The position numbers were made by a program, and so were the translations under genes. Below the pieces are notes generated by a model, which was not told where the DNA came from, searched no databases, and saw nothing but the letters and a program-made list of their open reading frames with translations. DNA of 64,000 nt from an uncultured Alphaproteobacteria bacterium (GTDB lineage: Bacteria > Pseudomonadota > Alphaproteobacteria > HIMB59 > GCA-002718135), in NCBI GenBank assembly GCA_902627245.1, contig CACOIH010000002.1:11630-75629 (forward strand), written 5' to 3'. Of the stretch, positions 5,156 to 21,050 are shown in pieces (position 1 is the first letter of the stretch; each line of letters begins with the position of its first letter).

Positions 5156-5157
5156 AT

Positions 5158-5769
5158 TTATAATTTTAAGAACTCAAGAATGTTATTATGTATCATTGTT
5201 TTACTTAAAGATGCATCAATATTTATATACCTTTTTGATATTGATATTTTTTTATAGCCAGCAATAACGGATCTATGAAAATCTAAACTTGTTTTGTCAT
5301 ATTTATTTTTAATTTTTCTTTTTCTTAATCTTCTAATGATCTCATTAATACTTAAATTAAATACAAATGTATAATCAGGATAAAAATTATCTAAAATATC
5401 AGCATGTAATTTTTTAGCTTTATTTATACCAAATTTATTAACAAAACCTTGGTAGACAAATGTAGAATCAGCATAACGATCTGAAATAACTATTTTGCCT
5501 TTTTTTAAATTTGGTAAAATTATATTGTTGATATGATTTGATCTTGCTGCCATCAATAATAAAATTTCTTCAAGGTTATTTATATTTGAGTTTTCACTTA
5601 AAATTAATTTTCTTAAATTTTCAGCAAATTTTGTTCCGCCAGGCTCCCTAGTTAAAATAAATTTTTTTTTATTCTTAATTAAAAATTTTTTTAAAAGTAA
5701 TATTTGAGATGATTTACCGCTAGCTTCAGGACCTTCGAAGGTTATAAATAAACCTTTTTTATTATTCAT
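5158..5769 (-). CDS. tmk: Thymidylate kinase
   Basis: 203 aa with P-loop FEGPEASGKSS and the TREPGGT motif. Confidence 0.9.
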   Translation of the reverse strand: MNNKKGLFITFEGPEASGKSSQILLLKKFLIKNKKKFILTREPGGTKFAENLRKLILSENSNINNLEEILLLMAARSNHINNIILPNLKKGKIVISDRYADSTFVYQGFVNKFGINKAKKLHADILDNFYPDYTFVFNLSINEIIRRLRKRKIKNKYDKTSLDFHRSVIAGYKKISISKRYINIDASLSKTMIHNNILEFLKL

Positions 5770-6924: not shown

Positions 6925-7863
6925 TTATTCAATAAATATTTCAGTTTCCTTATAACCTTTTGTAATAAAGTATGAAACTAAATTATTTGCTTCAGTATTT
7001 TCAATGGGACCAATAACTAAGTCAAATTTTGAATTATTTTTTTCAGAAGTATATTTTAAATTTTTATCATATTCATTAATTAATATTTGAATTTTTTCAT
7101 AATTTTCTATTCCAGATATTTTTAAGAATAATTTGAAATCTGATATTTTTTCAGATTTTAGTTCAATTGGTTCTTGCTTTATTTTATTAGTATTTTCTTC
7201 AGTTGTAATATCGTCGTCAATCTCAACAATTGATACTATATCTGTAGGAGCAGATGAAACAGTTTTTTCAAAATCTTCATCATTCATTGAATTTATAACA
7301 CTCTTCCATTGTTTACTTGCATCAGATAATATTTCGACTTTAACAGTAGCAATTTTAGATTTATAAAAGCCAAGAAGTTGCGCAACTTTTCTTGAAACTT
7401 GAATAATAGTTGCGTTTTCATAATGTCTATCAATAATTTTAACATTAATTGACAATCCATTATCCATATTAGTAATTTTCACCATACTTGGAAGTGGTAA
7501 GGTCTTATGTCTACCAAGTAATTCTGTTACCTTATTAATATCATTGTTTATTGTTTTTACATTATGTAATTCCTTGCCATAATAGGAAGATAAACCAATT
7601 TGAGAATAACTATAATTTTCCTTAGGTGTATAACTTACTCCTTCAATATAATATTGTTCTCCAACATAATAAAAAATATTGTCATTATTATTTAAATTAT
7701 CGTCATTATTGATAGTAATAGATTTTTTTTCTTCTTTATTTTCAATAACTTTTTCAATTTTTGATGCGCCTGTTTCTACCACTGTTGTAACTTTTTGAAT
7801 ATTTAATTCATTACAAGAATATAAAAATAAAAAAAAAGTAAAACTAGTTAGAAATTTTATCAC
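6925..7863 (-). CDS. rlpA: RlpA-family septal lytic transglycosylase lipoprotein with C-terminal SPOR-like domain
   Basis: Lipobox LYSC. DPBB-like core (HKTLPLPSMVKITNMDNGLSINVKIIDR) and a SPOR-like C-terminus. Confidence 0.75.
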   Translation of the reverse strand: MIKFLTSFTFFLFLYSCNELNIQKVTTVVETGASKIEKVIENKEEKKSITINNDDNLNNNDNIFYYVGEQYYIEGVSYTPKENYSYSQIGLSSYYGKELHNVKTINNDINKVTELLGRHKTLPLPSMVKITNMDNGLSINVKIIDRHYENATIIQVSRKVAQLLGFYKSKIATVKVEILSDASKQWKSVINSMNDEDFEKTVSSAPTDIVSIVEIDDDITTEENTNKIKQEPIELKSEKISDFKLFLKISGIENYEKIQILINEYDKNLKYTSEKNNSKFDLVIGPIENTEANNLVSYFITKGYKETEIFIE

Positions 7864-8896
7864 TGAGAAGTCCTACTGAAACAGCATAATATGATGAGCA
7901 ATTATAATAAAGAATATTTTTGTAATTTGGATAAACAATAAACATTCTTCCATCTATCCCATCTGGCATTATTAATCTAGCTTCTAGATCATTTCTAGCT
8001 GGTAAAGGATCCCCATTAATTTTAGTAAATCCTAATTTAGACCATTCTGATAAAGATTTAGGGATTGATCTTCTTTTAACAGCGCCACAACCTCTTGGAT
8101 TGATTTGTTTTATTGAATTGATAAATGATGAAGATATATTTTCAGGAGGAAGAACTTCCCTACCCCAAGTGCTATCTATAGACCATGGATTTTTGTCCAA
8201 TGAAGTTAAATAGTTTGCAGCACTTGCAAAGGCATCAGCATAACTATTCCATATATCAATGCCATTGCCATCCCAATCATATGCTGTTTCTATAAAAGTT
8301 GTAGGTATCATTTGTGTCATACCTACAGCTCCCCCCCAACTACCTTTTAATTCTCCACTTGGCACTAAATTATTATCTAAAATTTTAAGTGCCGCAAAAA
8401 GTTGCTTTTTATAGAAGTCGCTTCTCCTTCTATCAAAAGCAAGAGTCGTAATTGCAATGATTGAATTTATTTTACCCTGATTTCTTCCATAATAACTCTC
8501 CATACCCAACACAGCAACAATAAATCTAGGTTGTATTTTAAAATAATCACTTATTTCGTTTAGTAAATCTTCATGTTTTTTTAAGAATTTTTTTCCAACA
8601 AATATTTTATCTTTTGTAATAGTATAAAATAAATATTCGTCTAATGTCATTGTAGATGCTGGCTGACATCTATCTCGCATAATAATCTTACTTTGTGGTT
8701 GAACATTATTGAGATGAGTTGAGATAGTATTTTGACTTATACCTATTTCTAAGGCTTCTTTTTTTATATTTGATAGCCAACTATTCCATTCATCATCAGT
8801 TGGCATTTTGGGTTTTTCACAATCTGTTGCAAAAGCATTTAGAGATATAAATATAAAGCAAAGGAGAAACCTAATAATCATTATATAAAATACCAA
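7844..8896 (-). CDS. Lytic murein transglycosylase (MltB-like)
   Basis: Signal peptide, catalytic-Glu segment LGMESYYG, and GAVGMTQMIPTTF. Confidence 0.8.
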   Translation of the reverse strand: MVFYIMIIRFLLCFIFISLNAFATDCEKPKMPTDDEWNSWLSNIKKEALEIGISQNTISTHLNNVQPQSKIIMRDRCQPASTMTLDEYLFYTITKDKIFVGKKFLKKHEDLLNEISDYFKIQPRFIVAVLGMESYYGRNQGKINSIIAITTLAFDRRRSDFYKKQLFAALKILDNNLVPSGELKGSWGGAVGMTQMIPTTFIETAYDWDGNGIDIWNSYADAFASAANYLTSLDKNPWSIDSTWGREVLPPENISSSFINSIKQINPRGCGAVKRRSIPKSLSEWSKLGFTKINGDPLPARNDLEARLIMPDGIDGRMFIVYPNYKNILYYNCSSYYAVSVGLLSDKISN

Positions 8897-8934
8897 AACT
8901 ATCGTTAATTAGGAAATGATATATACTTAATATT

Positions 8935-8961
8935 TTGACATTTTTAAGATGAAACTATAGT
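8935..8961 (+). promoter_or_regulatory. Candidate sigma-70-type promoter in front of the orphan tRNA-Ser 5' fragment
   Basis: Perfect TTGACA at 8935-8940 and TATAGT at 8956-8961 (5/6 match), but the spacer is only 15 nt. The fragment starts 13 nt after the -10. AT-rich DNA gives many false promoter matches. Confidence 0.3.
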
Positions 8962-8971
8962 AAGCCATTAA

Positions 8972-9016
8972 ACGGAGAGATGGCTGAGCGGTTGAAAGCA
9001 CTGGTCTTGAAAACCG
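8972..9016 (+). repeat. Orphan 5' part of tRNA-Ser(UGA): att-like direct repeat of 11365-11409
   Basis: 45 nt identical to the intact gene plus its 2 leading bases, apart from one C>T at 9002 in the anticodon stem. Homology stops one base before the anticodon stem would close. Confidence 0.9.
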
Positions 9017-9088
9017 TTTATAAGCTAAGTATTCTAACAAAAAAAATACCTTAGAGCGAGTGTAGAGTGAAAATTTAGATAAAGTTGG

Positions 9089-9862
9089 TTACCCTACTCT
9101 ATAATGAACATCTTCCATGATCTCACCTTTTGGTTTTCTAATCTTAGATTTATTATTTCTTAACTCAAGAATACAATTATCAATTATACTTTTAGAGTTA
9201 TTCAAGAACCATGTATTTCTTGCAACAGGTATTAATCTAGAATTTTCAGGAAAAAAGAATGTTCGAATATCATATCCCCCTTCCAAAATTGTTTTATAAA
9301 ACTTACCTCTAGATTTAGTAAAATCGTGGTAACTCAGTAAATCAAAAGTAATTTCCTTACTATCTTTTGGACGAAGAAGATTAGTAATAAGCTGGTTATT
9401 TTTAATAACCTCAAAACCATATAATTTTTGTTCAAAATGCTCAAAAACCTCTTCTTCCCGGTTGTTTAACGATAATATTAAACTTTTTAAGATAACATGA
9501 TGTTGAAATTCATTTTTGTAAATAGATGTAAAAAACTCATATTTAAGATGATGACCAGAAGGTTCAGCAATAATTAATTGAGCTCCACAAATACTAATAT
9601 CATCATCATCGTCAAAGTCCACTAAAGGAGTAAAAACATAGTATCTTTCAGTCCACTCCTCCAAAGTAGTTACTTCTTCAAATTCTTTTTTAATATTAAG
9701 CTGGTTAATAAGTTGTTCTTTTGGTGATAAAACCTTGAAAGTATTCCGATAAACATCACTTTCATATGGTTCTATAGAAAAAGAAGTTGTGGCACCAAGA
9801 AGGAGTATAATAATGAAAAATAAGGTAATTATGAAAGTTACAATTCTTATTATTAGTGCCAC
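9089..9862 (-). CDS. Hypothetical membrane-anchored protein (islet cargo)
   Basis: 257-aa ORF with one N-terminal TM helix (IVTFIITLFFIIILLLG). I recognise no family. Confidence 0.5.
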   Translation of the reverse strand: MALIIRIVTFIITLFFIIILLLGATTSFSIEPYESDVYRNTFKVLSPKEQLINQLNIKKEFEEVTTLEEWTERYYVFTPLVDFDDDDDISICGAQLIIAEPSGHHLKYEFFTSIYKNEFQHHVILKSLILSLNNREEEVFEHFEQKLYGFEVIKNNQLITNLLRPKDSKEITFDLLSYHDFTKSRGKFYKTILEGGYDIRTFFFPENSRLIPVARNTWFLNNSKSIIDNCILELRNNKSKIRKPKGEIMEDVHYRVG

Positions 9863-9918
9863 ACTTTATTTAATATTATTTAATTTGGTAAATAATTTGT
9901 TAAGAATATGTTTAATTT

Positions 9919-10449
9919 ATGAAAATAATCATTTTTTTAAGTTTAGTAATATTTCTTTCAAAAGCATTAAATGCTGAAGATCTTAATGGGATAAATCTAA
10001 ATTGCTCAACTTATGATTATCCAAATTTAGAATTAAAAACTGAAAATAAAGACAATGATGTTATTTTTCCAAAGTCACTGACTGGACCAAGACCAATATA
10101 CTTTACAATAAATTTTGATCAAAAATATGCATATATAAATATTTTAAATATGAATAACGAACTTGGGGTAAAAGAGTTTTGGGGTAGCTATGATGCTAAA
10201 TTATCAACAGTAATAATATATGGGGGTAAAACTGATACAACTATTATGAAAATTAATAGACAGACTCTAAATATAGATAATACTGATGACGGTATTACAT
10301 TATTTGGTTTATATTTTGATGAAAATGATTTGATAGAAAAAAAGACATGCTCAATAGAAAGAAATAAAAAAAATTCTCAAAATTTAAAATTATTTAAAAG
10401 AATATGGGAATACGAAAAGAAAAAAGTAAAAGCTAAAAACAAATTTTAA
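9919..10449 (+). CDS. Hypothetical secreted protein (islet cargo)
   Basis: 176 aa with a signal-peptide-like N-terminus (MKIIIFLSLVIFLSKALNA). I recognise no family. Confidence 0.55.
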   Translation: MKIIIFLSLVIFLSKALNAEDLNGINLNCSTYDYPNLELKTENKDNDVIFPKSLTGPRPIYFTINFDQKYAYINILNMNNELGVKEFWGSYDAKLSTVIIYGGKTDTTIMKINRQTLNIDNTDDGITLFGLYFDENDLIEKKTCSIERNKKNSQNLKLFKRIWEYEKKKVKAKNKF

Positions 10450-10649
10450 TGTGTGACATTCTAGGTTATATTTTTGTTATTCTTTTTTTTGCAAATTTTT
10501 TCACACCATATTTAGCATTGAAAAAATCAGGACTTGATGTTTTTATGGTTAAAACAAGATTTTATATTGTTTTAATAACTTTAATTGGTGGTTGGTTGTT
10601 AATTTTCTTAGGAGGATCTTTTATAATGGAGACTTATTGTGAATTTTAA
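10449..10649 (+). CDS. Hypothetical small two-TM membrane protein (islet cargo)
   Basis: 66 aa with two hydrophobic helices. Its start is coupled to the upstream stop (TAATG). Confidence 0.45.
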   Translation: MCDILGYIFVILFFANFFTPYLALKKSGLDVFMVKTRFYIVLITLIGGWLLIFLGGSFIMETYCEF

Positions 10650-10670
10650 ATTTTAATATTATTTTTTAAA

Positions 10671-11309
10671 ATGATTAATAAAATTAATAAATTTTTTTGT
10701 TGCTGTTGTTTAATTTTTTTTATTTTTCCCTTAAATTTAGAGAGCCAGGATACATCAAAATGTATTGAAAACCAGACTAATGGACTTTGCAAAACATTAA
10801 GTTGTTACAATGAGTATAAAATGATGGAACTTACAAATGGCAAATGCAAAACATTAAGTTGTTACAATGAGTATAAAATGATGGAACTTACGAATGGTCA
10901 ATGCAAAACACTTGAATGTTATAATAATTTAAAAATTAAAGAACATACAGATGGAAGATGTGAAACCTCTAAATGTTATCTAAAAGAATTAGAAGATGAT
11001 ACAAAAAAAATGATAATTACAAAAACACAAGGAGTTTGTAATAGTGAAGATTTTTCTGAATTAGTTATTTGTTATTGTTCAATATTTCCTTGTTCTTCTT
11101 CCAGATCTTATGAATATCAAGTTGAAGGTTATAGTTATGATCATGGTTACGTTAGAGGTGAAATTACAGCTGACTCTAATGGAGATGTTGAAGGATCAAT
11201 TTATTTAGATGATGGAGAAGAAATAGATTTTCAAGGTGAATTTGTTGGAAAAGGTGAAATTGAAGGTTATGATGCTGATGGAAGTTATTATGAACTTGAA
11301 GTTGATTAA
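10671..11309 (+). CDS. Hypothetical secreted Cys-rich repeat protein with acidic Gly-rich C-terminal domain (islet cargo)
   Basis: 212 aa. Hydrophobic N-terminus, four 19-aa CxxxxCY modules, and C-terminal G-x-V/I-x-G beta-hairpin-like repeats. Confidence 0.6.
   Translation: MINKINKFFCCCCLIFFIFPLNLESQDTSKCIENQTNGLCKTLSCYNEYKMMELTNGKCKTLSCYNEYKMMELTNGQCKTLECYNNLKIKEHTDGRCETSKCYLKELEDDTKKMIITKTQGVCNSEDFSELVICYCSIFPCSSSRSYEYQVEGYSYDHGYVRGEITADSNGDVEGSIYLDDGEEIDFQGEFVGKGEIEGYDADGSYYELEVD
10788..11015 (+). repeat. Four tandem 57-nt coding repeats (19-aa module CKTLSCYNEYKMMELTNGK)
   Basis: TGC/TGT module starts at 10788, 10845, 10902 and 10959, an exact 57-nt period. Units 1 and 2 are nearly identical; units 3 and 4 have diverged. 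Confidence 0.85.
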
Positions 11310-11366
11310 TTTTAAAATTTTATTCTTTAAAAAAAAATTTAGTAATATATAGCATTTCAAACATAC

Positions 11367-11456
11367 GGAGAGATGGCTGAGCGGTTGAAAGCACCGGTCT
11401 TGAAAACCGGCAACGGGGCAACTCGTTCGTGAGTTCGAATCTCACTCTCTCCGCCA
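11367..11456 (+). tRNA. tRNA-Ser (anticodon UGA), type II with long variable arm, CCA encoded
   Basis: Acceptor stem GGAGAGA/TCTCTCC. Anticodon stem CCGGT/ACCGG with loop CTTGAAA. T-arm GAGTTCGAATCTC. Discriminator G followed by CCA. 90 nt. Confidence 0.95.
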
Positions 11457-11509
11457 TTTTTAAGCATAATTTTAATAACTTTAAATAAATTTTGTGGTAA
11501 AATTTATTT

Positions 11510-11764
11510 ATGGTTAAGATTTTAAAATTTCCTAATAGAAATTCACCTGCCTCTAAAGAAAAAATGGAGGAACTACTCATAGCTAATGAAGAGTTTAATA
11601 AAAAAGAAGATGAATTTGATAAAGCTTTATTTGATTTATTTAAAAAATATAAAAAAATAAGTAAGTATTTAAAATCAACAAAAAAAGAGAATAATGAACT
11701 TTTAAGAGGTTTGAGAAATAGTTTTAAATCTAAATTAGAGGATATAAAAAAGATATTAGAGTAA
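11510..11764 (+). CDS. Hypothetical small Lys/Glu-rich (coiled-coil-like) protein (islet cargo)
   Basis: 84-aa ORF starting 54 nt after the tRNA. I recognise no family. Confidence 0.4.
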   Translation: MVKILKFPNRNSPASKEKMEELLIANEEFNKKEDEFDKALFDLFKKYKKISKYLKSTKKENNELLRGLRNSFKSKLEDIKKILE

Positions 11765-11803
11765 TGAAAATTTTTTTTGATGATTCTTTATCTAAGAACA
11801 ATA

Positions 11804-12112
11804 TTAATTTTTTTCAATAAAAATTGTATAGAAAAAAATACAAATAATTACCCAACAAACAAGACTAATTAACCCAAACAATATGTTATCAAAGGTACGA
11901 GCTTCCTCTGACAATAAAGTTAAAAATGTGAAAAAATAATAGTAAAATAAATTAAAATCATACAATTCTATAATCCATTTAGTAGTTTTATTAAAATCAA
12001 GATTATTTTTAATAAATATAAAAAGAAAAAGAATTATGAAATAGGAAAGCCATACTTGAAAAAAAATAAATATGAAAAATAAAATTTTATCAATTAAATT
12101 TTCTCTTTGCAT
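11804..12112 (-). CDS. Hypothetical multi-TM membrane protein (islet cargo)
   Basis: 102 aa and very hydrophobic. Lies 3 nt downstream of the previous minus-strand ORF. Confidence 0.45.
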   Translation of the reverse strand: MQRENLIDKILFFIFIFFQVWLSYFIILFLFIFIKNNLDFNKTTKWIIELYDFNLFYYYFFTFLTLLSEEARTFDNILFGLISLVCWVIICIFFYTIFIEKN

Positions 12113-12115
12113 TGA

Positions 12116-12712
12116 TTAATATTTTAATTGACCAGTTAAATAGAAATGGAAATAGTATTCAAGTATTTTCCAGAGTATTTTATCATTATCTTTAAAATAA
12201 TTACCCCACTCAACATACTTATCATGCTCATCTAATTTTATGATTTTTTCTAAGTATCCTTCATTAAAATAATAAACATAATCTCCAGAAGTATCTTCAC
12301 AACGATCATTAATAAAACCATATCCATCAGGAAATCCATTTTTGAAATTACAAATAAATTCATAGTGATCTTGAGCACCCTCTTCTAAACCACCAAGTTC
12401 AATATATGCTGGACCTTCTAGTTTGCCATTAATATATTGACCCTTTTCATACGTTCTAGTCTTATAATGAAATCTAAGAAGTGCCTCTTCACCTTTTAAA
12501 GAGTTAAGTAAATCTAAATCATAGGGATCTCTATTCTCTAAGATTTTCGGTAACTTAAATTTGTCTTTAATACCAATTTCTCTTAGAGTGTGTGGAATAC
12601 CGTTTTTCGTTTTACCTTTGTAGGTATATTCTAGTGGAGCACTATTTTTATCTGAAAGAATTTTATTAATCTCCTTCATTTCTTGTTTTTTCCAATTTTT
12701 CCAATTCATCAA
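12116..12712 (-). CDS. Hypothetical protein with MORN-like Gly-rich repeats (islet cargo)
   Basis: 198 aa. Segments such as YEKGQYINGKLEGPAYIE and NFKNGFPDGYGFIN resemble MORN-type repeats. The assignment is weak. Confidence 0.5.
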   Translation of the reverse strand: MMNWKNWKKQEMKEINKILSDKNSAPLEYTYKGKTKNGIPHTLREIGIKDKFKLPKILENRDPYDLDLLNSLKGEEALLRFHYKTRTYEKGQYINGKLEGPAYIELGGLEEGAQDHYEFICNFKNGFPDGYGFINDRCEDTSGDYVYYFNEGYLEKIIKLDEHDKYVEWGNYFKDNDKILWKILEYYFHFYLTGQLKY

Positions 12713-12798
12713 TTAAAGATTAATATAATTAAATAAAAATAATTACACACATTTTACACACTGATCTAATTAATGGCTAAAATACAAGAAAAAAAACA

Positions 12799-12872
12799 GT
12801 TGAAAGCACCGGTCTTGAAAACCGGCAACGGGGCAACTCGTTCGTGAGTTCGAATCTCACTCTCTCCGCCAT
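12799..12872 (+). repeat. 3' part of tRNA-Ser(UGA): perfect 74-nt direct repeat of 11384-11457 (att-like)
   Basis: The stretch from gttgaaagcaccgg to ctctccgccat is identical base for base to the intact gene, running from the D-arm to CCA plus 1 nt. Confidence 0.92.
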
Positions 12873-12875
12873 ATT

Positions 12876-13085
12876 TTATCTACTTATTGTTCCCCAGGTG
12901 ACTCTATTCCATCCTCTTTCGTGTAAATAATATAAAACTGTTTTAGTTATTACTTCTAACAATGTAATACTGCCAGCCCATGACAATTTTCCAGTAATAA
13001 TATAACTAATTAAAAAAGTATCTGCGGAAGCTAGTATTCTCCAGCTAATTGCTTTTATAAATGATCTTGTTTTATTTGCTATCAT
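12876..13085 (-). CDS. DUF2061-family small membrane protein
   Basis: 69 aa. SWRILASADTFLISYIITG and YYLHERGWN are typical of DUF2061. Confidence 0.7.
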   Translation of the reverse strand: MIANKTRSFIKAISWRILASADTFLISYIITGKLSWAGSITLLEVITKTVLYYLHERGWNRVTWGTISR

Positions 13086-13235
13086 ATTATTTCCTTTGTT
13101 AATTATTAAATATTTATTTTAATTCTAAAGTAAAATATTAATATTAAAAAATAAATATATCTATTTTATTAAAATGTGTGTGTATTTTTGCTAAAAAATA
13201 TAATATTTTTTATGTTAACAAGAAAGGATAATTAT

Positions 13236-13553
13236 ATGTCAATATTTGTTTCACTTGGTATATATTCTCAAAAAGGAGCTGATGGCATTATCAATGGTTC
13301 ATCAGATAGAAGAGAAGCAATGGAAAAATTAGTTGAAAGTGTTGGAGGAAAATTAATAGATTATCATATTACAAGAGGTCAATATGATTTTGTAATGATT
13401 ACTGAAATTGATTCTTTTGAAGCAATGGCAGCTTGTGCTTTAAAAGCAAAAGCATCAGGTACTTTATCAGAAGCTATAACATTAGAGTCAGTTGATCTTA
13501 ATAAAGTTAGAGAGATGGGAAACAAAGTTGATTTCTCACCGCCAACATCATAA
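13236..13553 (+). CDS. GYD-domain protein
   Basis: The ORF track begins at a GTG (13176). An ATG at 13236 preceded by aaagga is the more plausible start. The GQYDF motif and overall size fit the GYD family. Confidence 0.75.
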   Translation: MSIFVSLGIYSQKGADGIINGSSDRREAMEKLVESVGGKLIDYHITRGQYDFVMITEIDSFEAMAACALKAKASGTLSEAITLESVDLNKVREMGNKVDFSPPTS

Positions 13554-13560
13554 TTTTATT

Positions 13561-13592
13561 AGCACTCTGATTTAAGAGTGCTATTTTTTTTC
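13561..13592. terminator. Intrinsic terminator hairpin between convergent genes (possibly bidirectional)
   Basis: Perfect 8-bp stem agcactct/agagtgct with a 6-nt loop, followed by a T8 run on the plus strand. It lies 8 nt after the GYD stop, and its right arm contains the stop codon of the minus-strand gene. Confidence 0.55.
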
Positions 13593-14675
13593 AAATAACC
13601 ATAACTTATCTTGGGCTAATAAATATATCTTACCGCTCTCTGGATGTATTTTGATATCTCTAATTCTACCAATAATATTTTTAAAAATTATTTCTTCCTG
13701 AATTTTTTTTGAATTTTTAAAATTCAATAAACGTAAGGATTGATCTTTAAGAGAAGTAATGAGAGCAAGACCATTAAACTCTGGAAACTCTTTTCCTTTA
13801 TATATTGCTATTGCACTAACCGCTATTGATGGAACCCAATAATGAATAGCTTTTGTAAAACCTGGCAGCCATTTTGGTCCTATATTTGAATTGTCATAAT
13901 TTGTTCCACCCCAGCCTAATATTTTCCAGCCATAATTTTCACCTTTTTTGACTTCACCAAACCAGTCTCCACCTTTTGCCCCATGATTACTAATATAAAT
14001 TTTATTGTCAAAAGGAGAATATGACATACCCTGAGGATTTCTTATTCCTATTTGAAATATTTCAGGTAACCAATCTAGATTTTCAGTAAAATGAGGATTA
14101 TCATTAGGTGAACTACCGTCTAAATTAATCCTAATTATGCTTCCAGGATGCTTATCGCCTTCTTGTGCTATCATTCCTTTTCCTCTTTCTCCAACTGATG
14201 CGTATAAATAATCATCAAGAATAACTATTCTTGAGCCAAAGTGATAAGGTGATCTAATTGGAGGATAAGCTCTAAAAATATTTTTAAAATCTAAGAAATT
14301 TAAATTGAAATTTGCTTTTGCAATAGATGTTGTTGAGGGACTAAACAATTTATTACCAATCTTTTCAGAGTAGGATATAAAAATCTGATTTTTATAAAAG
14401 TAAATATCTAAGAGGCCACCTTGAGAGTTTTTATCTCTAACAAAATTTAAGTTGTGATCGATACCAATAATTTTATTACTTTGAATATTGAATAGCTTAA
14501 TTTTTCCAGTTTTTTCACTAATTAAAACGTGATTATTATTTATAAAAGTCAAACTCCAAGGAGATGTTAAATTTGATTTTAAAATTTTAAGTTTATATTG
14601 ATTGTCTAAAGATAAAACATTTTTACTAAAAAATAAAATAATAAAAAAATTAAATATGAAAAAAACTTTAATCAT
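13581..14675 (-). CDS. PQQ-dependent soluble sugar (glucose/sorbosone) dehydrogenase, beta-propeller
   Basis: Signal peptide plus the family segments GGLLDI, GIRNPQGMSYSP, HGAKGGDW and ENYGW. Confidence 0.8.
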   Translation of the reverse strand: MIKVFFIFNFFIILFFSKNVLSLDNQYKLKILKSNLTSPWSLTFINNNHVLISEKTGKIKLFNIQSNKIIGIDHNLNFVRDKNSQGGLLDIYFYKNQIFISYSEKIGNKLFSPSTTSIAKANFNLNFLDFKNIFRAYPPIRSPYHFGSRIVILDDYLYASVGERGKGMIAQEGDKHPGSIIRINLDGSSPNDNPHFTENLDWLPEIFQIGIRNPQGMSYSPFDNKIYISNHGAKGGDWFGEVKKGENYGWKILGWGGTNYDNSNIGPKWLPGFTKAIHYWVPSIAVSAIAIYKGKEFPEFNGLALITSLKDQSLRLLNFKNSKKIQEEIIFKNIIGRIRDIKIHPESGKIYLLAQDKLWLFEKK

Positions 14676-17600
14676 TATTTTATTAAATTAATGACTTTTT
14701 TAGATAATTCAAATCTGTCATTAATTAAATTACCCCCAAAATCATAAAAAATTTTTTGATCAGGTCTTAATATTAAAGAATTTTTATTTGATAATGAAAG
14801 TTCTAATAATTTTTCAGGATTCTTTGGTTTGTTTAAAAAGAAACTTACTAATATACCCTTTCTGCTAAATTCAAATTTTTCAATATTGTGCTTTAAACAA
14901 ATTATTTTAATTTCTACTAATTTTAATAGATTAATTAATTGATTAGGCAATTTACCAAATCTATCTATTAATTCTATTTTTATATCTTCAATTTCTTTGT
15001 TATTATTAATGTTAGATATTCTTTTATAAATAGAAAGTCTTAAATCAACATCGTTAATAAAATCTTCAGGTATATATATCTCAACAGGTATTTTAATAAT
15101 CGGTTGAAATGTATCATTTGTTTTAAAATTTGAATTAGATTTACTTTTTTGAAAATTTATCTCTTCTTCAAGCATTTGATGGTATAATTCAGTTCCAATT
15201 TCTTTTATAAAACCACTTTGCTCTTCACCTATTATAGAACCACTCCCTCTAAGATCTAAATCTTGAGATGCTATATTAAAACCTGCTCCGAGATGATCAG
15301 AGGAATTAATTATAGATAATCTTTTTCTTCCATTATCTTTTAATTCGTTTTCTTTATATGTCATGTATGCATATCCACGATAAGAAGATCTACCTACTCT
15401 TCCCTTCAATTGATATAGTGCAGCCAATGAGAAAATATTGGATCTGTATACTATAATTGTATTTACATGAGGTAAATCTAAACCATTTTCAATAATATTA
15501 GTACTAAGCATTAAAGGAACTTCTTGATTATAAAATTTCGATATTCTACTTTCTAATAATTTAGGATTAAGTTGACCGTGGGTGACTACATATTTTATTT
15601 CTGGTAAATTATCATTTAAAAATTGTTCAACAAAAGGTAAGTCTTTTTTTCTCGGAACAACGAAGTATACTCCGTTTTTTCTTCCATATATCTCTCTTTT
15701 AATAGCTTCTGTTATAGTTAAAGGGTCAAAAGGTGAAACGAATGTTCTAACTGCCATTCTCTCAAACGGTGCTGTGAGAATTAAACTTAGATCTCTTATT
15801 CCTGAAAGAGACATACTTAAAGTTCGTGGAATAGGGGTAGCGCTAAGTGAAATACAATGAGCTTTTGGCGCAATTTCTTTAAATTTTTCTTTTTGAATTG
15901 TTCCTAATTTTTGCTCTTCATCATAAACTATTAAACCAAGCTTATTAAATTGTAACTTATCATTCAATAAAGCATGAGTACCGACTAATACATCAATATT
16001 ACCAGCATTGCATTTTTCAAAAATTTCTTTTTTATCTTTTAATGATACTAATCTAGAAACTTCTGCAATGTTAATACCAAAAATAGATAATCTTTTTTTA
16101 AAATTAATGAAATGTTGCCTAGATAAAATTGTAGTTGGAACTAAAACTACAGATTGTAAATTTGACTTTGCAACTAAAAAAATAGCTCTCAAAATTACTT
16201 CTGTTTTACCATATGCAACATCACCTACAATTAATCTGTCAGATGGTATCATTTTAGAAAAATCATTAATAATATCTTGAATAGCATTTAATTGATCATC
16301 AGTTTCAACAAATGGAAAGGTACTTACAAATTTGTCATATTCAGCAATATTTGTTTTAATTTCATAAGATTGAGATTGTAACCTCTTAGAAGCTATAGTA
16401 ATAAGTTTTTTTGCTGCATCTCTAATTTTCTTTTTTGCATCTGCTTTTCTTTTTTGCCAATGTGAAACTCCAAGCTTATCTAAAATGATATTTCCATCTA
16501 TATCATCACTATATTTTGAAACATAACTCAAATTTTCAACTGGTAAAAAAAGTTTCTGATTATCAAAAAATTCTAATTCTAAACATTCATGAATCGAGTC
16601 ATTTAATTCAATTTTTCTTATATCATTAAACTTACAGAGACCATATTCAGAATGAACTAGAATCGAATCAATTGATAACTTATTTAATTCTTCAAAAAAT
16701 ATTGTCTGTTTACGTGGTTTTGAAATTTGTGTATTAAAAAAATAACCAAATAATGATTTTTCGTTAATAAATATATATTGATTAAATTTTAATGACTCCT
16801 CAATATCCAAAATAGTTAATAAAATTTTATCTGAGAAAGTATGATTAAAATTAGTTACGAATTTTAATTTTAAATTTAAATTATTTTCTAATATTTTAGA
16901 TACTCTTTCTAGACTTCCCTTACTTCGACAGCATATATAAATTATATTATCTTTAGAATTAGTTATAAAAAATTGATTTATAAAACTAAAATCTATTTCT
17001 TTTTTAATAGATGATAAGTTATGAATAATATTTACATTAATATTAATATGATTATTTTTATTAAATGTACTGAAGTAATAATGCTTATTGTTGTCTAAAT
17101 ATTTTTTTAAACTTTGTTGATTCAGGTAAAAATATTCAGGTGATAAAAAAAAACTTTCTTTATTGTTTTTTCTTGCCAAATAAAAATCATTGATATTTTC
17201 TAATCTATTTTCAAATATATTTTTAAATTCGTCGTTTAGTAATATTGTATATTCTTTTATATAATCAAATAATGTTTCTAGATTATTATAAAACAATGGC
17301 ATAAATTGCTCACCACCTGATGGAATAATATTTTCAGAAAAAAGATTGTAAACTTGACTATTTCTATATTCTGGAAATATTTCCCTAAATTTTTTTCTAA
17401 ATAGGCTCAAGTTTGTTTCATTAACTATTAGCTCATTAACAATGTTAAACTCTAAATCACAATTTATTTCTTTTAATCTTTTTTGTGTAATAGGGTCAAA
17501 CTCAAAAATAGTCTCTATTTCATCGTCAAAAAAATCTATTCTTATCGGTTTAAGTTTGTCATTTGGAAAAATATCTAAAATTGAACCTCTTACAGAAAAT

Positions 17601-18052
17601 TCTGATTTATCACGCACTAAAGATGTTCTTTGAAATCCTAAAAGCACAAGGTTATTTATTAAATCTTCAAATTTAAACTTTTGTTTTTTAGAAATTTTTA
17701 AAAGTTGTGAATTAATAATTGATTTAGGGATTATTTTTTGTACTATTGAATTAATTGTTGTTAGTATTATTCTTCTTTTATTTGAAGTTGATAATATTTT
17801 AAGAGTTTTTAATCTTTCAATTTGAACTTCTTTTGAAGGAGAAACATTGTCGTATGGTATTTGATCCCAAGATTTAAATAATAATATCTCAATGTCAGGT
17901 AATAACCATTTTATTTTTTGCCCCATAGATGATATTTCTCTTTCATCTTTTCCAATATATAAGATTGATTTATTGGAGCTTTCGTAAAATTTTGAAATAA
18001 AAAAGGGTTCAACTTTATAAATTGAAGGTCCAATAGTATTTTTATTTTTCAT
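14675..18052 (-). CDS. mfd: Transcription-repair coupling factor
   Basis: 1125 aa. SF2 helicase motifs GDVAYGKTEV, DEEQ, SATPIPRTL and QLKGRVGRS, with a UvrB-homology N-terminus. Confidence 0.95.
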   Translation of the reverse strand: MKNKNTIGPSIYKVEPFFISKFYESSNKSILYIGKDEREISSMGQKIKWLLPDIEILLFKSWDQIPYDNVSPSKEVQIERLKTLKILSTSNKRRIILTTINSIVQKIIPKSIINSQLLKISKKQKFKFEDLINNLVLLGFQRTSLVRDKSEFSVRGSILDIFPNDKLKPIRIDFFDDEIETIFEFDPITQKRLKEINCDLEFNIVNELIVNETNLSLFRKKFREIFPEYRNSQVYNLFSENIIPSGGEQFMPLFYNNLETLFDYIKEYTILLNDEFKNIFENRLENINDFYLARKNNKESFFLSPEYFYLNQQSLKKYLDNNKHYYFSTFNKNNHININVNIIHNLSSIKKEIDFSFINQFFITNSKDNIIYICCRSKGSLERVSKILENNLNLKLKFVTNFNHTFSDKILLTILDIEESLKFNQYIFINEKSLFGYFFNTQISKPRKQTIFFEELNKLSIDSILVHSEYGLCKFNDIRKIELNDSIHECLELEFFDNQKLFLPVENLSYVSKYSDDIDGNIILDKLGVSHWQKRKADAKKKIRDAAKKLITIASKRLQSQSYEIKTNIAEYDKFVSTFPFVETDDQLNAIQDIINDFSKMIPSDRLIVGDVAYGKTEVILRAIFLVAKSNLQSVVLVPTTILSRQHFINFKKRLSIFGINIAEVSRLVSLKDKKEIFEKCNAGNIDVLVGTHALLNDKLQFNKLGLIVYDEEQKLGTIQKEKFKEIAPKAHCISLSATPIPRTLSMSLSGIRDLSLILTAPFERMAVRTFVSPFDPLTITEAIKREIYGRKNGVYFVVPRKKDLPFVEQFLNDNLPEIKYVVTHGQLNPKLLESRISKFYNQEVPLMLSTNIIENGLDLPHVNTIIVYRSNIFSLAALYQLKGRVGRSSYRGYAYMTYKENELKDNGRKRLSIINSSDHLGAGFNIASQDLDLRGSGSIIGEEQSGFIKEIGTELYHQMLEEEINFQKSKSNSNFKTNDTFQPIIKIPVEIYIPEDFINDVDLRLSIYKRISNINNNKEIEDIKIELIDRFGKLPNQLINLLKLVEIKIICLKHNIEKFEFSRKGILVSFFLNKPKNPEKLLELSLSNKNSLILRPDQKIFYDFGGNLINDRFELSKKVINLIK

Positions 18053-18290
18053 TTAGTATTTTATTAAAAATTTCATTAAATTCTGACGGAATAGCAACTT
18101 TAAAAGTAAGAAAATCATAAATCTCGTTATCAGAGAATTGATTAAATAATGATTCAATATCTTCAAGATTTTTTTTACTAAATTTATCTATCTGATTTAT
18201 AAAATATCGTTTGTATAATATGTCTGTTTCTTTTGTTCCTGAGTAAGAAAGTCTATATTTTATAGATTTTTTTAGTAAATTGAATGACAT
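18042..18290 (-). CDS. sdhE: Succinate dehydrogenase assembly factor 2 (SdhE/DUF339)-like protein
   Basis: 82 aa. Lies in the conserved alphaproteobacterial position between divergent recG and mfd. The GTKETDILYKRYF segment resembles the SdhE R-G-x-x-E core. Confidence 0.55.
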   Translation of the reverse strand: MSFNLLKKSIKYRLSYSGTKETDILYKRYFINQIDKFSKKNLEDIESLFNQFSDNEIYDFLTFKVAIPSEFNEIFNKILNEK

Positions 18291-18333
18291 AATAATTCAG
18301 TATAGAATATAGTTGATAATTTTATAAAAATCT

Positions 18334-20415
18334 ATGAGACCAAAAAAATTAAATTACATATTATCTTCAATATCATCTTTGAAAGGAGTTGGTCCAAAAT
18401 TAGAGCAAATTATTAATAAATTAGGTATTTATAAGAATATCCATTTTCTATGGAACATACCAAATAATATTCTAGAAAGAAAATTTTATGAAAATATACA
18501 TGATGCAGAAATTAATTCATTAGTAACATTAAATTTAAAAATTATTAAACATGAGCCCTCAAGATTTAAAAGACAGCCTTACAAAATTAAATGTATCTGT
18601 GGAGATACAAATATTGATTTAATATATTTTAATGCAAGGCACCCTATGATGAGACAAATGCTGCCAACAAATGAAAATAAATTAATATCTGGAAAGTTAG
18701 AGTATTTTAGAAATACTTTTCAAATAACTCATCCTAACAATGTAACTGACTTAAAAAATAATAAAATAATAAAAAGTAAAGAAGCAATCTACAGCCTAAC
18801 AAATGGCTTAAATCAAAAAATAATGAATAAATTAACTCATCAAATATTGAATAATTTACCAAATTTTAATGAATGGATAGAAACCAAAATATTAAATAAG
18901 TATAGATTTAAACCGTGGAGTGAAGCAGTTATAAATCTTCATAATCCAAGTGATGATAATATTAAAAATAAGAATTTACTCAGAAGAAGATTAGCGTTTG
19001 ATGAATTATTGTCCCACCAATTAGCAATTGGTATTATGAGAAATTTCAATCAAAAGAAAAAAGGTCTAAAAATTACAAGTGGGAATAAAATAATAAATAA
19101 ATTTTACAATAATTTAGAATTTAAACTAACTAATTCACAAAATAATGTAATAAAAGAAATTATTAATGATCTAGAGAGCTCTAATCAAATGATTAGATTG
19201 TTACAAGGAGATGTTGGGTCTGGCAAAACTATTGTAGCCTTGATTTCAATGATAAAAGTTTTTGAGAGTAATTTACAATCAGCATTAATGGTACCTACTA
19301 CTATTCTTGCATTTCAGCATTACGAAAATATTTTAAATTTATTAAAAAATTCAAAAATAAATGTAATTATTCTTACTGGAAGGGACAAAGGAAGGGAGAG
19401 GAAGGATAAATTAGATAAAATTGAAAATGGACACGCAGATATTATAATTGGTACTCATGCATTAATACAGGATAGTGTAATATTTAAAAATTTAGGCTTA
19501 GCGGTAATTGATGAACAACATCGATTTGGAGTCTATCAAAGAATGGTATTTAATCATAAAAATCATAAACCAAATATTTTAGTAATGAGTGCAACACCAA
19601 TTCCAAGAACATTAACGTTAGCAGCATACGGAGATATGAAAGAAAGTAAATTAGTTGAAAAACCTTTAGGTCGAAAACCAATTATAACTAGTTCATTGTC
19701 ATTAAAAAAAGAAAATCAACTTATTGAAAGAATAAAAGCAAAAATTATTAATTCTATGTCTAAATTTTATTGGGTGTGTCCTTTAATTGAAGAGTCAGAA
19801 GAATTAGACCTAAAAGCTGCAGAAGAAAGATATAAAATATTAAAAAAATATTTCAAAGAAAAGGTTTTATTAATGCACGGACGTTTAAGTGAATTAGAAA
19901 AAGAACAAATAATGTCAAAATTTAAAAATGAGGATTATAAAATTTTAGTTTCAACAACTGTTATTGAAGTTGGTGTTGACATACCATCTGCTACAACAAT
20001 TATAATAGAGCACGCAGAAAGATTTGGATTAGCTCAACTTCATCAGTTAAGAGGTCGTGTTGGAAGAAATGATATTCAATCATATTGTATACTTTTACAT
20101 AAAGAAAATATTGGAGAAATTGCTAAAAAAAGAATTGAAATAATGAAGCAAACTGATGATGGGTTTGAAATTGCTGAAGAGGATTTAAAGATAAGAGGTC
20201 CAGGAGAAATCTTAGGAAAAAAACAGTCAGGAAGTCCCTCTTTTTATGTTGCTGATCTTAGTTTTGATAATGATTTGCTAGAAGATGCTAAAATTATGGT
20301 TGAAAACATTTTAGAAAAAAATCCAAAATTAGAAAATATTCAAGGAGAGAATCTTCGAAACTTATTATATTTACAGGAAAGAGATGCTGCTATTTTAACT
20401 CTTACTGCAGGATAA
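18334..20415 (+). CDS. recG: ATP-dependent DNA helicase RecG
   Basis: 693 aa with GDVGSGKT, DEQHRFG, SATPIPRTL and QLRGRVGRN. Confidence 0.95.
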   Translation: MRPKKLNYILSSISSLKGVGPKLEQIINKLGIYKNIHFLWNIPNNILERKFYENIHDAEINSLVTLNLKIIKHEPSRFKRQPYKIKCICGDTNIDLIYFNARHPMMRQMLPTNENKLISGKLEYFRNTFQITHPNNVTDLKNNKIIKSKEAIYSLTNGLNQKIMNKLTHQILNNLPNFNEWIETKILNKYRFKPWSEAVINLHNPSDDNIKNKNLLRRRLAFDELLSHQLAIGIMRNFNQKKKGLKITSGNKIINKFYNNLEFKLTNSQNNVIKEIINDLESSNQMIRLLQGDVGSGKTIVALISMIKVFESNLQSALMVPTTILAFQHYENILNLLKNSKINVIILTGRDKGRERKDKLDKIENGHADIIIGTHALIQDSVIFKNLGLAVIDEQHRFGVYQRMVFNHKNHKPNILVMSATPIPRTLTLAAYGDMKESKLVEKPLGRKPIITSSLSLKKENQLIERIKAKIINSMSKFYWVCPLIEESEELDLKAAEERYKILKKYFKEKVLLMHGRLSELEKEQIMSKFKNEDYKILVSTTVIEVGVDIPSATTIIIEHAERFGLAQLHQLRGRVGRNDIQSYCILLHKENIGEIAKKRIEIMKQTDDGFEIAEEDLKIRGPGEILGKKQSGSPSFYVADLSFDNDLLEDAKIMVENILEKNPKLENIQGENLRNLLYLQERDAAILTLTAG

Positions 20416-20420
20416 TTAAT

Positions 20421-20858: not shown

Positions 20859-21037
20859 CCATCTGACTCAAATTCCATTTCTTTGAAATAACCGATATAT
20901 TTATTAGTCTTTTTTTTTAATAATATTTTTATTGTGGTTCCTTCTAGTACAACTTCAAGAATATGATCATTTTTTCTCAAAATATCACATTTTTTCTTAA
21001 TACCAGTTGCAATATTAGTTATTAAAGTTTTTTTCAC
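20855..21037 (-). CDS. Hypothetical small protein
   Basis: 60-aa ORF that fills an otherwise empty 190-nt space downstream of the Ldh2-family gene. I recognise no family. Confidence 0.3.
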   Translation of the reverse strand: MKKTLITNIATGIKKKCDILRKNDHILEVVLEGTTIKILLKKKTNKYIGYFKEMEFESDG

Positions 21038-21050
21038 AAAATTAATTATA

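Follow-up and report, generated by a model that had tools for sequence, protein, structure and literature searches.

The tRNA-Ser(UGA) gene, its partial copies and the two islets

The window, as we call the whole 64-kb stretch of DNA analysed, carries a single tRNA-Ser(tga) gene, detected by both ARAGORN and Rfam (62.6 bits in Rfam), which lies between one islet on its 5' side and another on its 3' side (Table 1). The whole structure, from 8974 to 12872, covers 3899 nt and is bounded by two partial copies of the same gene, such that a part of the target tRNA is directly repeated at the far end of each insert, over 43 nt on the 5' side and 74 nt on the 3' side. These partial copies are the only long repeats within the window and chance is therefore not a viable explanation for them. 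As the original prediction had proposed, 12799-12872 is an exact copy of 11384-11457, and the reading of this 74-nt repeat as an attL/attR pair was borne out; the repeat extends to 78 nt if one mismatch is allowed, and in an alignment with the relatives the 3' copy covers tRNA positions 16-90 if G17A is allowed. The native flanks have stayed with the displaced fragments, the mltB-side flank with the 5' fragment and the DUF2061-side flank with the 3' fragment. In the former there is a TTGACA and, about 12 nt upstream of tRNA +1, a TATAGT, and the flank to the right of the 3' fragment matches the native tRNA-downstream flank in loci L029, L054 and L055. Since foreign DNA flanks the working tRNA-Ser left and right, a part of the gene appears to be islet-derived, which would make it a chimera.

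All four proteins encoded by islet A have N-terminal hydrophobic or transmembrane segments, in agreement with the surface or secreted cargo predicted for it, and the gene for A212 contains three 57-nt tandem repeats at 10776-10946. Islet B holds the three ORFs of 84, 102 and 198 aa that had been described, none of them a recombinase, and apart from a sub-threshold MORN match they received no Pfam, PHROG or NCBIfam assignment. The lack of a recombinase, claimed from the start, was confirmed for the ORFs of the islets by searches of Pfam, PHROG and NCBIfam; nor did the islets give any significant PHROG match to the phage structural, replication or lysis genes that mark a prophage remnant. An exact-protein look-up returned no record of A257, A212 or the first ORF of the window, and an AlphaFold model of B198 built from a 3-sequence alignment was unusable (pLDDT 39). 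The G+C content of the islets is the same as that of their surroundings, and composition therefore gives no foreign-DNA signal.

Table 1. Features of the tRNA-Ser(UGA) locus, with positions in the window.
Feature	Position	Strand	Remarks
Native upstream (promoter) region of tRNA-Ser, still on the mltB side	8897..8973	+	91-97% identity to the mltB-tRNA spacer of about 50 empty-site relatives
Stranded 5' portion of tRNA-Ser at the left junction of islet A	8974..9016	+	tRNA positions 1-43, one difference (C29T)
Islet A, 5'-side insertion	9017..11366		2350 nt; no recombinase; missing in about 60 relatives
A257	9089..9862	-	257 aa; predicted N-terminal membrane anchor or signal sequence; homologue in L055 (68%)
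A176	9919..10449	+	176 aa; predicted N-terminal hydrophobic signal
A66	10449..10649	+	66 aa; two hydrophobic segments
A212	10671..11309	+	212 aa; Cys-rich (17 Cys); N-terminal hydrophobic segment
Conserved right end of 5'-type islets	11326..11366	+	motif TAATATATAGC 11-13 nt before tRNA +1
Functional tRNA-Ser(UGA)	11367..11456	+	ARAGORN, Rfam; neither flank matches the native flanks of relatives
Islet B, 3'-side insertion	11457..12798		1342 nt; no recombinase; empty sites in L029, L046, L054, L066
B84	11510..11764	+	84 aa; Lys/Glu-rich; conserved first gene of the 3'-type island family
B102	11804..12112	-	102 aa; two hydrophobic segments; 99% identity in L097, L101, L102
B198	12116..12712	-	198 aa; MORN-like (sub-threshold Pfam); cargo family common in these islands
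Two direct TTACACAC repeats	12743..12761	+	spacing 11 nt; 38-56 nt to the left of the 3' fragment
Stranded native 3' portion of tRNA-Ser at the right junction of islet B	12799..12872	+	tRNA positions 18-90 plus 1 nt
DUF2061 membrane protein gene	12876..13085	-	native right tRNA flank in this sub-lineage; Pfam 3e-23

Empty sites and separate occurrence of each insertion type

The locus was compared with 69 related Pelagibacteraceae-type loci. The baseline order, found in about 55 relatives, is mltB, 85 bp, one tRNA-Ser and then sorbosone dehydrogenase or mfd, and the same mltB-tRNA distance of 85 bp holds in the relatives (about 60) that lack islet A. DUF2061 directly follows the tRNA in L055 and in the four relatives with an empty site for islet B. 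Most relatives provide empty sites, and the displaced fragments of the window retain the native flanks of these.

The 5' type occurs alone in L055, where a 5' fragment, a homologue of A257, a full tRNA and then the native DUF2061 follow one another. L055 has the same 5' fragment as the window, with T29 and the same junction (AAAACCG|ttt). The left end of islet A and the 257-aa gene are common to both loci (74% nucleotide and 68% amino-acid identity) and the cargo in the middle differs; a further homologue of A257 (28% identity) lies in an island of L110, beside a cobB-integrase pair. The geometry of islet A and of L055 is that of an attP-type partial 5' tRNA end which rebuilds the host tRNA, and in L055 the 5'-type insertions are stacked, its 5' fragment having an element-type left flank. 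The window, L055 (twice) and L050 have the motif TAATATATAGC in common, at the same spacing as the native TATAGT, and it may thus act as the replacement -10 box of the rebuilt tRNA; in DNA as AT-rich as this, a promoter/terminator consensus scan showed no enrichment relative to shuffled sequence and is uninformative on such a promoter role.

The 3' type occurs alone in L007, L019 and L033, which carry the native promoter, a full tRNA, cargo, a 3' fragment and the native flank in this order. Their 3' fragments span tRNA positions 15/16-90, the boundary at position 16 being identical in the window, L007 and L019, and their cargo differs while their ends are conserved. L033 has three tRNA copies. 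Such 3' fragments were found in three different native right-flank backgrounds; L011 and L047 have no detectable 3' fragment despite their B84-bearing islands. Against a variable middle, the islands share B84 and tandem TACAC(G)AC repeats at their ends. This right-end motif, a tandem 8-9-nt repeat, keeps the same place in L019 and L007 (two copies of CTACACGAC), as it does in L033. The window has just three exact copies of TTACACAC, and across 1.56 Mb of loci scanned the tandem TACAC(G)AC form was present only at the right ends of islands. Its position and conservation suggest that the tandem TTACACAC repeats are a candidate arm-type binding site of a recombinase.

The components of islet B have a wide distribution of their own. 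The left end of B84 adjoins tRNA-Ser in at least four upstream contexts, namely mltB, islet A, a RarD-like gene (L102) and ABM/AOX genes (L109), and in L019 a 99% identical B84 occupies the same position. The exact B84 protein was recovered from 43 metagenome blocks, where the genes around it vary and DNA homology breaks off at the ends of the ORF; in distant contexts, a LexA-type repressor and a weak terminase-small-subunit-like (TerS-like) gene are among the genes beside it. A scan of JGI metagenomes for B84 yielded two short contigs only, and none was found in IMG/VR. Paralogues of B198 are present in L019 (two), L096, L099 and L108, and a homologue (76%) lies directly downstream of tRNA-Leu(CAA) in L114. 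Three ocean metagenome contigs (L097, L101 and L102) show 98-99% identity over parts of 11367-12697.

The view that one tRNA received two independent insertions, one on each side, is upheld by the empty sites, the native flanks and the occurrence of each type alone elsewhere, and the variation at population level that had been asked for beforehand as a check is abundant. That one composite element split the host gene into a 5' and a 3' fragment is by comparison very improbable. The two fragments do overlap in tRNA sequence by exactly the core which such an element would need, and there are pelagiphages that split a host tRNA while bringing in a complete one themselves (bioRxiv 10.1101/410191). 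However, each half-structure stands by itself elsewhere (5' in L055; 3' in L007, L019 and L033), L019 has the same B84 left end beside a tRNA with the native mltB-side promoter, and in L102 islet B follows a different upstream gene. Short-read assemblers can be misled by repeats of 43-74 nt, but it is hardly credible that the structure is an artefact of assembly or arose by local duplication of tRNA pieces in tandem, with unique coding sequence between the copies and the same junction types in the independent assemblies of L055, L007, L019, L033, L097, L101 and L102.

tRNA alleles, crossover position and candidate recombinases

The rebuilt tRNA of L007, L019 and L033 is T29/A43 and their displaced fragment C29/G43, a combination that no crossover between positions 29 and 43 could have produced. 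The original prediction had favoured a crossover in the anticodon loop, which these alleles exclude, placing the exchange outside positions 29-43. Judging from the allele patterns, it most likely fell within tRNA positions 16-28, between the D-loop and the beginning of the anticodon stem. Each of these three loci, which have both copies, shows its allele switch 5' of position 29; 13 of 75 nt lie 5' of 29, which gives a probability of about 0.5% by chance if the events were independent and random. All five SAG loci with 3'-side islands have T29/A43, compared with 2 of 57 that lack such islands (Fisher p = 3e-6), namely the island-free L030 and L062, and the allele pair is scattered on the mltB tree. 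The window is the exception among these alleles, its middle tRNA and its 3' copy both being C29/G43, which may reflect either a different attP allele on the element or homogenisation of the copies. The 100% identity of the 3' repeat against one mismatch in the 5' repeat had earlier been taken as a clock pointing to a younger 3' islet. This fails, as T29 is also present in the 5' fragment of L055 and hence is an allele that travels with the islands and not decay after insertion, with no dating value.

The sublocation classes of tRNA integration sites drawn up by Williams in 2002 are reportedly the anticodon loop, the T-loop and the 3' end. As in the anticodon-loop class, the 3'-type repeat reaches the 3' end of the tRNA and includes the anticodon stem-loop; in contrast to these classes, the alleles exclude exchange at 29-43, and a D-arm-side crossover with a 5'-complementing partner would not be classical.

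A purely homologous origin would have the islands built elsewhere or long ago and exchanged by RecA through the tRNA and core genes, or a circle with a partial tRNA entering by a Campbell-type single crossover, with no site-specific integrase acting at this locus in the lineage. We consider this unlikely, even though there is no integrase anywhere near and the islands are mosaics with breakpoints at gene boundaries, as at the ORF ends of B84. Contig L097, which joins the left part of the window to L019-type right cargo, is also in line with it, and so are the full identity of the two copies in the window, as expected from gene conversion, and the presence of T29/A43 without an island in L030 and L062, as if an island had been deleted by recombination 3' of position 43. 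Against it, the same fragment boundaries (15/16-90, and 1-43 with an identical junction) recur across different flank backgrounds, the allele switch is 5' of 29 in L007, L019 and L033 alike, and the tandem repeat motif is conserved at a fixed distance from the core. We infer from these regularities that recombination was site-specific rather than homologous.

No integrase or integrase pseudogene was found in the islets, the 64-kb window or the 69 related loci, and no free attP in any of these, in IMG/VR or in deposited phages. The earlier suggestion that the 3' islet may still be recombining did not gain support, there being no sign of a cognate integrase or a free attP. A scan of IMG/VR with the tRNA core pattern gave 26 matches, all complete tRNA-Ser genes, with no attP-like partial tRNA among them. 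Megablast of both tRNA fragments against phages gave no match, a blastn 'distant' search with the fragments returned generic phage tRNA-Ser genes only, and tblastn of A257, B84 and B198 against 50,697 phage records returned nothing. Two candidate integrases were examined and rejected. The 363-aa ORF neighbouring tRNA-Lys (22152-22227) is a malate/lactate dehydrogenase, and a cobB-linked integrase just left of the window could not be upheld, this arrangement occurring only in the distant contig L111.

A conserved and very abundant 352-aa tyrosine recombinase lies next to cobB in relatives of the lineage, including AG-422-E02 (the source of L034), and the variable island beside it carries B84, MORN-like and A257-like genes. 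Att-flanked, integrase-less and cis-mobilisable derivatives of integrative elements are known as CIMEs from the Streptococcus ICESt literature. The islets resemble them in the att-like direct repeats that flank recombinase-less cargo; in contrast to CIMEs, no parental integrase-bearing element was found for them. It is quite unlikely that they are integrase-less cassettes of this kind still mobilised in trans, whether by the cobB-linked recombinase or by that of an infecting phage. The shared genes and abundance of the cobB-linked recombinase would suit such mobilisation, as would the intact att-like ends, the right-end motif kept across islands with unrelated cargo and the 98-99% identity of islet B in Tara contigs from several samples. 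However, neither the tandem motif nor any tRNA-Ser fragment occurs in the vicinity of the cobB-linked recombinase, giving no sequence link to these att sites, and about 80 kb separate it from the tRNA in AG-422-E02. Moreover, an identical whole islet with both junctions was not seen in two backgrounds and no circular form was found.

Proposed mechanism and comparison with known systems

The explanation which we favour, with a probability of about 0.68 for the reading as a whole, is that the tRNA-Ser(UGA) gene lying between mltB and DUF2061/mfd serves as a hotspot of integration, where two separate small integrative elements recombined with the tRNA itself, and that the locus is an additive flexible island in a Pelagibacteraceae (SAR11)-type lineage. 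Islet A would have brought a promoter-like box and tRNA positions 1-43 at its right end, the gene being rebuilt from the 5' half of the islet and the native 5' half (8974-9016) being stranded by mltB. Islet B would likewise have brought tRNA positions 16-90 at its left end, with the gene rebuilt from its 3' part and the native 3' part (12799-12872) stranded by DUF2061, and the outcome would be a working tRNA (11367-11456) between two foreign segments. The islets may be deletion remnants of integrase-bearing elements or passengers of an integrase encoded elsewhere, and the islands would later have evolved as mosaics through gene-boundary recombination and deletion.

In a bolder model, integrase-less cassettes from a common pool would dock on either side of the tRNA-Ser gene, and a 'core' tyrosine recombinase encoded on the chromosome (e.g. 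the cobB-linked one) or phage integrases would insert and excise them in trans; the 5' type would bring a promoter and the 5' half, and the 3' type the 3' part and tandem arm repeats. We hold this to be distinctly improbable; if true, it would mean integron-like gene sampling in a streamlined SAR11-type genome with no mobile machinery per cassette. An integron cassette array proper was rejected, as no integrase lies adjacent and the cassette ends share no recurrent repeat other than the tRNA pieces and the tandem motif.

SAR11-type bacteria are the most abundant cells of the ocean and their flexible gene pool is very large, and to our knowledge they carry almost no recognisable mobile elements. 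Gene gain anchored at a tRNA is real at this locus and already known in SAR11-type bacteria. Under the hotspot reading favoured above, the locus gives a base-resolved example of small gene packets entering next to and inside a tRNA gene, leaving the current picture unchanged and refining a mechanism put forward earlier for the islands of SAR11 and Prochlorococcus. The useful details are the use of both tRNA halves, the supply by the element of a tRNA half along with a putative replacement promoter, a fixed crossover interval that can be inferred from natural alleles, and an end motif testable with candidate recombinases.

Among the systems described, partial tRNA repeats bound cassettes in the integrase-poor flexible islands of SAR11 (Molina-Pardines et al. 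2025, Microbiome 13:41, PMC11796062). Those cassettes agree with the present ones in the clade-level host, the tRNA-linked islands, the partial tRNA repeat (>90% identity) that marks a cassette and the lack of canonical mobile elements, a single integrase being present in the islands of that genome. Here, in contrast, one tRNA bears both 5'- and 3'-side insertions, and junctions, alleles and end motifs are resolved.

In pelagiphages of the HTVC019P type, the partial 5' tRNA end of attP rebuilds SAR11 tRNAs (Zhao et al., bioRxiv 10.1101/410191). There the crossover falls inside the tRNA and the gene is restored by a partial 5' end from the element, at times with altered bases in the element-derived part, and islet A has exactly this geometry. 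The pelagiphages, however, are complete phages with their own tyrosine integrase and target tRNA-Cys, tRNA-Leu and tRNA-Arg, whereas islet A is devoid of phage genes and of an integrase, and nothing homologous to it turned up in deposited phages or PHROGs.

The additive model of tRNA islands was proposed for the tycheposons of Prochlorococcus (Hackl et al., bioRxiv 10.1101/2020.12.28.424599), likewise a streamlined marine host, where islands grow at particular tRNAs including Ser-tga, partial tRNA copies separate successive integrations, most island material lacks hallmark genes and the host has a related 'core gene' integrase. The specific island tRNA with partial copies between stacked elements is found here as well, at tRNA-Ser(tga) in L055 and L033. 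Unlike tycheposons, the islets have no tyrosine or large serine recombinase at one end by the tRNA, nor any integrase or replication module, growth occurs on both sides of the tRNA and the host is an alphaproteobacterium.

A rearrangement in L003 was considered as tied to the att core and rejected, its breakpoint lying just upstream of the tRNA and not inside it. As a point against the favoured reading, the frequent homologous recombination in SAR11 could spread or reshape structures of this kind without an integrase.

Partial tRNA-Ser copies and their native flanks

The sole complete tRNA-Ser gene of the window carries the anticodon UGA and is flanked on both sides by partial copies of itself. 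Positions 11384-11457 are identical across 74 nt to the 3' fragment, and a third partial copy, the 5' fragment, corresponds to tRNA positions 1-43 with a single difference, C29T; a scan of the whole 64 kb returned no other long repeats. The three copies delimit islet A (5' type) and islet B (3' type), whose seven ORFs had no significant Pfam, PHROG or NCBIfam assignment and included no recombinase (0/7). The original prediction had described the tRNA, the 74-nt identity, the three ORFs of islet B and the lack of a recombinase accurately; its finding is real and its interpretation mostly right.

Coordinates of features in the window and in related or metagenome loci compared with it (L-numbers)
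Feature	Location	Details
mltB (transglycosylase)	window 7844-8896	
5' fragment of tRNA-Ser	window 8974-9016	
Islet A	window 9017-11366, 2350 nt	ORFs of 257, 176, 66 and 212 aa
57-nt tandem repeats	window 10776-10946	in the 212-aa ORF
tRNA-Ser(tga), complete	window 11367-11456	ARAGORN and Rfam
Islet B	window 11457-12798, 1342 nt	ORFs of 84, 102 and 198 aa
B84 (84-aa ORF)	window 11510-11764	compared in L096-L105
Shared N-terminal/right-end module	window 12656-12712; L019 rev-comp 16032-16079	
Tandem right-end repeats	window 12743 and 12754	TTACACAC x2
Tandem right-end repeats	L019	CTACACGAC x2
3' fragment of tRNA-Ser	window 12799-12872	
tRNA-Lys(ttt)	window 22152-22227, minus strand	
Low-G+C region	window 39000-44000	G+C 0.20-0.23
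Three tRNA-Ser copies	L033 rev-comp 11128-13300	
330-aa ORF	L050 rev-comp 4210-5440	
T29/A43 tRNA	L030 rev-comp 11120-11234	
mltB junction	L003 rev-comp ~11045-21044	
cobB (Sir2) and divergently transcribed tyrosine recombinase (352-354 aa)	L108 2682-4627; L110 9108-11065; L111 9115-11059	
B198 homologue	L114 2-799	also L113, L115

Relatives were collected via the neighbouring mltB, which gave 69 loci in single-cell and metagenome-assembled genomes whose titles read Pelagibacteraceae or uncultured Alphaproteobacteria (G+C is ~26% here). About 55 of the 69 carry rlpA, mltB, 85 bp, one tRNA-Ser, 0.2-1 kb and a sorbosone-dehydrogenase gene in this order, and in more distant relatives mfd directly follows the tRNA-Ser; therefore, the ancestral state is a single tRNA hard against mltB. 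Its downstream side varies with lineage and holds a sorbosone dehydrogenase gene, DUF2061 together with GYD, a sulfotransferase or an alpha/beta hydrolase. Empty-site relatives have, between mltB and the tRNA, a spacer that is 91-97% identical to the 77 nt preceding the 5' fragment, and the sequence right of the 3' fragment matches that after the intact tRNA in the DUF2061 group (L029, L054 and L055), while the complete middle tRNA has a native flank on neither side. This distribution points to two insertions into the gene, one pushing the tRNA 5' part to the left and one pushing its 3' part to the right.

Each type of insertion was also found alone. In L055, of the 5' type, the 5' fragment is identical to that of the window, T29 and the 'AAAACCG|ttt' junction included; after it come a homologue (68% identical) of the 257-aa ORF (A257), a second gene that differs and belongs to the AIPR family, a complete tRNA and the native DUF2061. 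A carbamoyltransferase/GDSL-lipase segment precedes this fragment, which is 3.9 kb away from mltB and has in its left flank the TAATATATAG box also seen at the right ends of 5'-type islets, a layout that two successive 5'-type insertions would give. In the 3'-type loci L007, L019 and L033, the native promoter precedes a complete tRNA, after which come 1-5 kb of unrelated cargo, a 3' fragment (positions 15/16-90) and the native downstream flank of each locus's own empty-site relatives; the window fragment shares this boundary with G17A allowed for. One composite element that brought a tRNA of its own, which would also explain the window, is disfavoured by these 5'-only and 3'-only loci and by L102, where islet B (99% identical) follows a tRNA with a different upstream gene.

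Crossover position and tRNA alleles

The anticodon-stem pair occurs among relatives in two states, the common C29/G43 and T29/A43. The rebuilt tRNA of L007, L019 and L033 has the T29/A43 pair, their displaced fragment has C29/G43, and the crossover in the anticodon loop that had been proposed is not borne out, as exchange at 29-43 needs a T29/G43 host and a C29/A43 element, neither of which was seen; the exchange therefore lay 5' of 29 or 3' of 43. T29/A43 was present in 5/5 SAG loci with 3'-side islands vs 2/57 without (p = 3e-6) and is scattered on the mltB tree, L047, for instance, having another allele than L039 and L043, its near-identical neighbours; the allele thus comes in with the island, which would place the crossover most likely at tRNA positions 16-28. 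The T29 of the 5' fragment in the window and L055 fits this interval and is an island-associated allele and not decay. The age argument drawn from a 100% identical 3' repeat and one mismatch in the 5' repeat therefore fails. The window is an exception, as both of its copies, likewise those of near-identical Tara contigs, are C29/G43, which may reflect either a different attP allele or homogenised copies.

Some loci depart from these layouts. L033 contains three tRNA-Ser copies within 1.3 kb (a full T29/A43 gene, a near-complete foreign allele that spans 3-90 and whose variable arm resembles the one in L050, and a fragment of 15-90) interleaved with two sulfotransferase genes, and the region looks like flanking DNA captured from another host. 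L050 has a 330-aa ORF between mltB and the tRNA without a 5' fragment, and its homology to the native spacer stops near the -35 region. In L030 the tRNA is just 25 nt from the sorbosone-dehydrogenase gene, a spacing that suggests a deletion scar.

Island ends and the proposed insertions

The 3'-type islands of the window and L019 begin on the left with one and the same gene, the 84-aa B84 (99% identity), and a homologue again follows tRNA-Ser in L109, in another genomic context. At the right end, ~60 nt adjoining the 3' fragment are conserved in the window, L007 and L019, and more loosely in L033, and include two direct 8-9-nt repeats, 11 nt apart. Exact TTACACAC has three occurrences in the whole window, and in 1.56 Mb of collected loci a regular expression written for the tandem arrangement hit the right ends of islands in the window and L019 alone, the few remaining matches being unrelated sequences. 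Their position and spacing fit candidate arm-type recombinase sites. Common to 5'-type islets is a TATAG-type box at the right end, 11-13 nt ahead of the tRNA +1, the distance of the native TATAGT, and 5'-type elements therefore appear to carry a promoter along with the 5' tRNA half. A generic promoter scan gave no enrichment over shuffles in this AT-rich DNA. The first ~17 codons (M.N.KKEEMKEINKIL) and upstream region of the 198-aa gene (B198) are common to a 157-aa secreted-type ORF of L019, the rest of the two ORFs being unrelated; recombination appears to have fused this common module to different gene bodies.

The best-supported account is two independent site-specific insertions into the tRNA gene, one complementing its 5' half and the other its 3' part, whose products are now without a recombinase and reshuffled, as in L097, where the left part of the window is joined to L019-type right cargo. 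That purely homologous recombination brought the islets into this particular genome is a serious rival. An integrase as the builder of the structures is favoured by identical fragment boundaries in three right-flank backgrounds, a one-sided allele switch and a conserved end motif. That the tRNA is a docking site, on either side, for an integron-like cassette system mobilised in trans seems improbable.

The locus belongs with the otherwise element-free SAR11 islands, where partial tRNA repeats mark cassette insertions and a single island-associated integrase is reported (PMC11796062), with HTVC019P-type pelagiphages, which insert themselves into tRNA genes of SAR11 and restore these with a 5' end that the phage carries (10.1101/410191), and with Prochlorococcus islands, which grow beside tRNAs including Ser-tga by stacked integrations with partial tRNAs between and consist mostly of material without element hallmarks (10.1101/2020.12.28.424599). 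To these cases it adds the use of both halves of one tRNA, a middle tRNA between two foreign segments, an allele-based crossover interval outside the anticodon loop and a defined conserved tandem end motif.

Candidate recombinase and cargo genes

No integrase was found in any island of the loci examined, and phmmer, with a lineage tyrosine recombinase as query, detected none among 1,788 ORFs. Of 20 integrase-sized ORFs elsewhere in the window, 18 belong to other families and 2 had no match. Neither an attP-like partial tRNA-Ser nor cargo homologues were found in IMG/VR or deposited phages. In the SAG locus L108, a B84/LexA/TerS-like/MORN-like cluster lies immediately next to the cobB gene of a cobB-tyrosine recombinase pair. 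This pair is conserved and very abundant (thousands of 77-95%-identical recombinase copies in ocean metagenomes, matched weakly by Xer-type models), and the variable DNA on either side of it carries B84, MORN-like and A257-like genes. In AG-422-E02, a relative's genome, ~80 kb separate the recombinase from the tRNA. Neither a tRNA-Ser fragment nor the tandem motif was found beside it, and it is a candidate, nothing more, for the trans-acting enzyme of the islets. On the left of the recombinase, one genome has restriction-modification genes and another has B84 with MORN-like and TerS-like genes. In L003 (AG-892-B03), mltB is joined straight to a guanylate cyclase, UPF0114 and DHDPS run that adjoins the cobB-integrase region in AG-422-E02, and tRNA-Ser is absent from this stretch, which would fit a large inversion broken no more than ~10-25 nt ahead of the tRNA start; the join may also be a single-cell amplification chimera.

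An identical B84 protein recurs in 43 metagenome blocks, where its neighbours differ; in some blocks they are a LexA-type repressor, MORN-like genes and a weak terminase-small-subunit-like gene. The protein is 100% conserved with DNA just 95-97% identical, and DNA homology to the window starts and stops at the ORF ends in at least eight gene contexts, a pattern that indicates a gene under strong purifying selection and shuffled as a unit. A 76%-identical homologue of the MORN-like B198 lies directly downstream of tRNA-Leu(CAA), and this cargo family therefore occurs at another tRNA as well. The 212-aa protein of islet A has 17 cysteines and an N-terminal hydrophobic segment, and its three tandem repeats (100%, 91% and 68% identity) encode a Cys-rich 19-aa unit (…NG.CKTLSCYNEYKMMELT…). 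The second tRNA of the window, Lys-ttt, has no partial repeats there, and an integrase beside it was rejected as the neighbour is a malate/lactate dehydrogenase gene. The lowest G+C of the window coincides with a glycosyltransferase, a methyltransferase-like ORF and a 319-aa ORF without Pfam match, and may mark a separate flexible region of surface-polysaccharide type.
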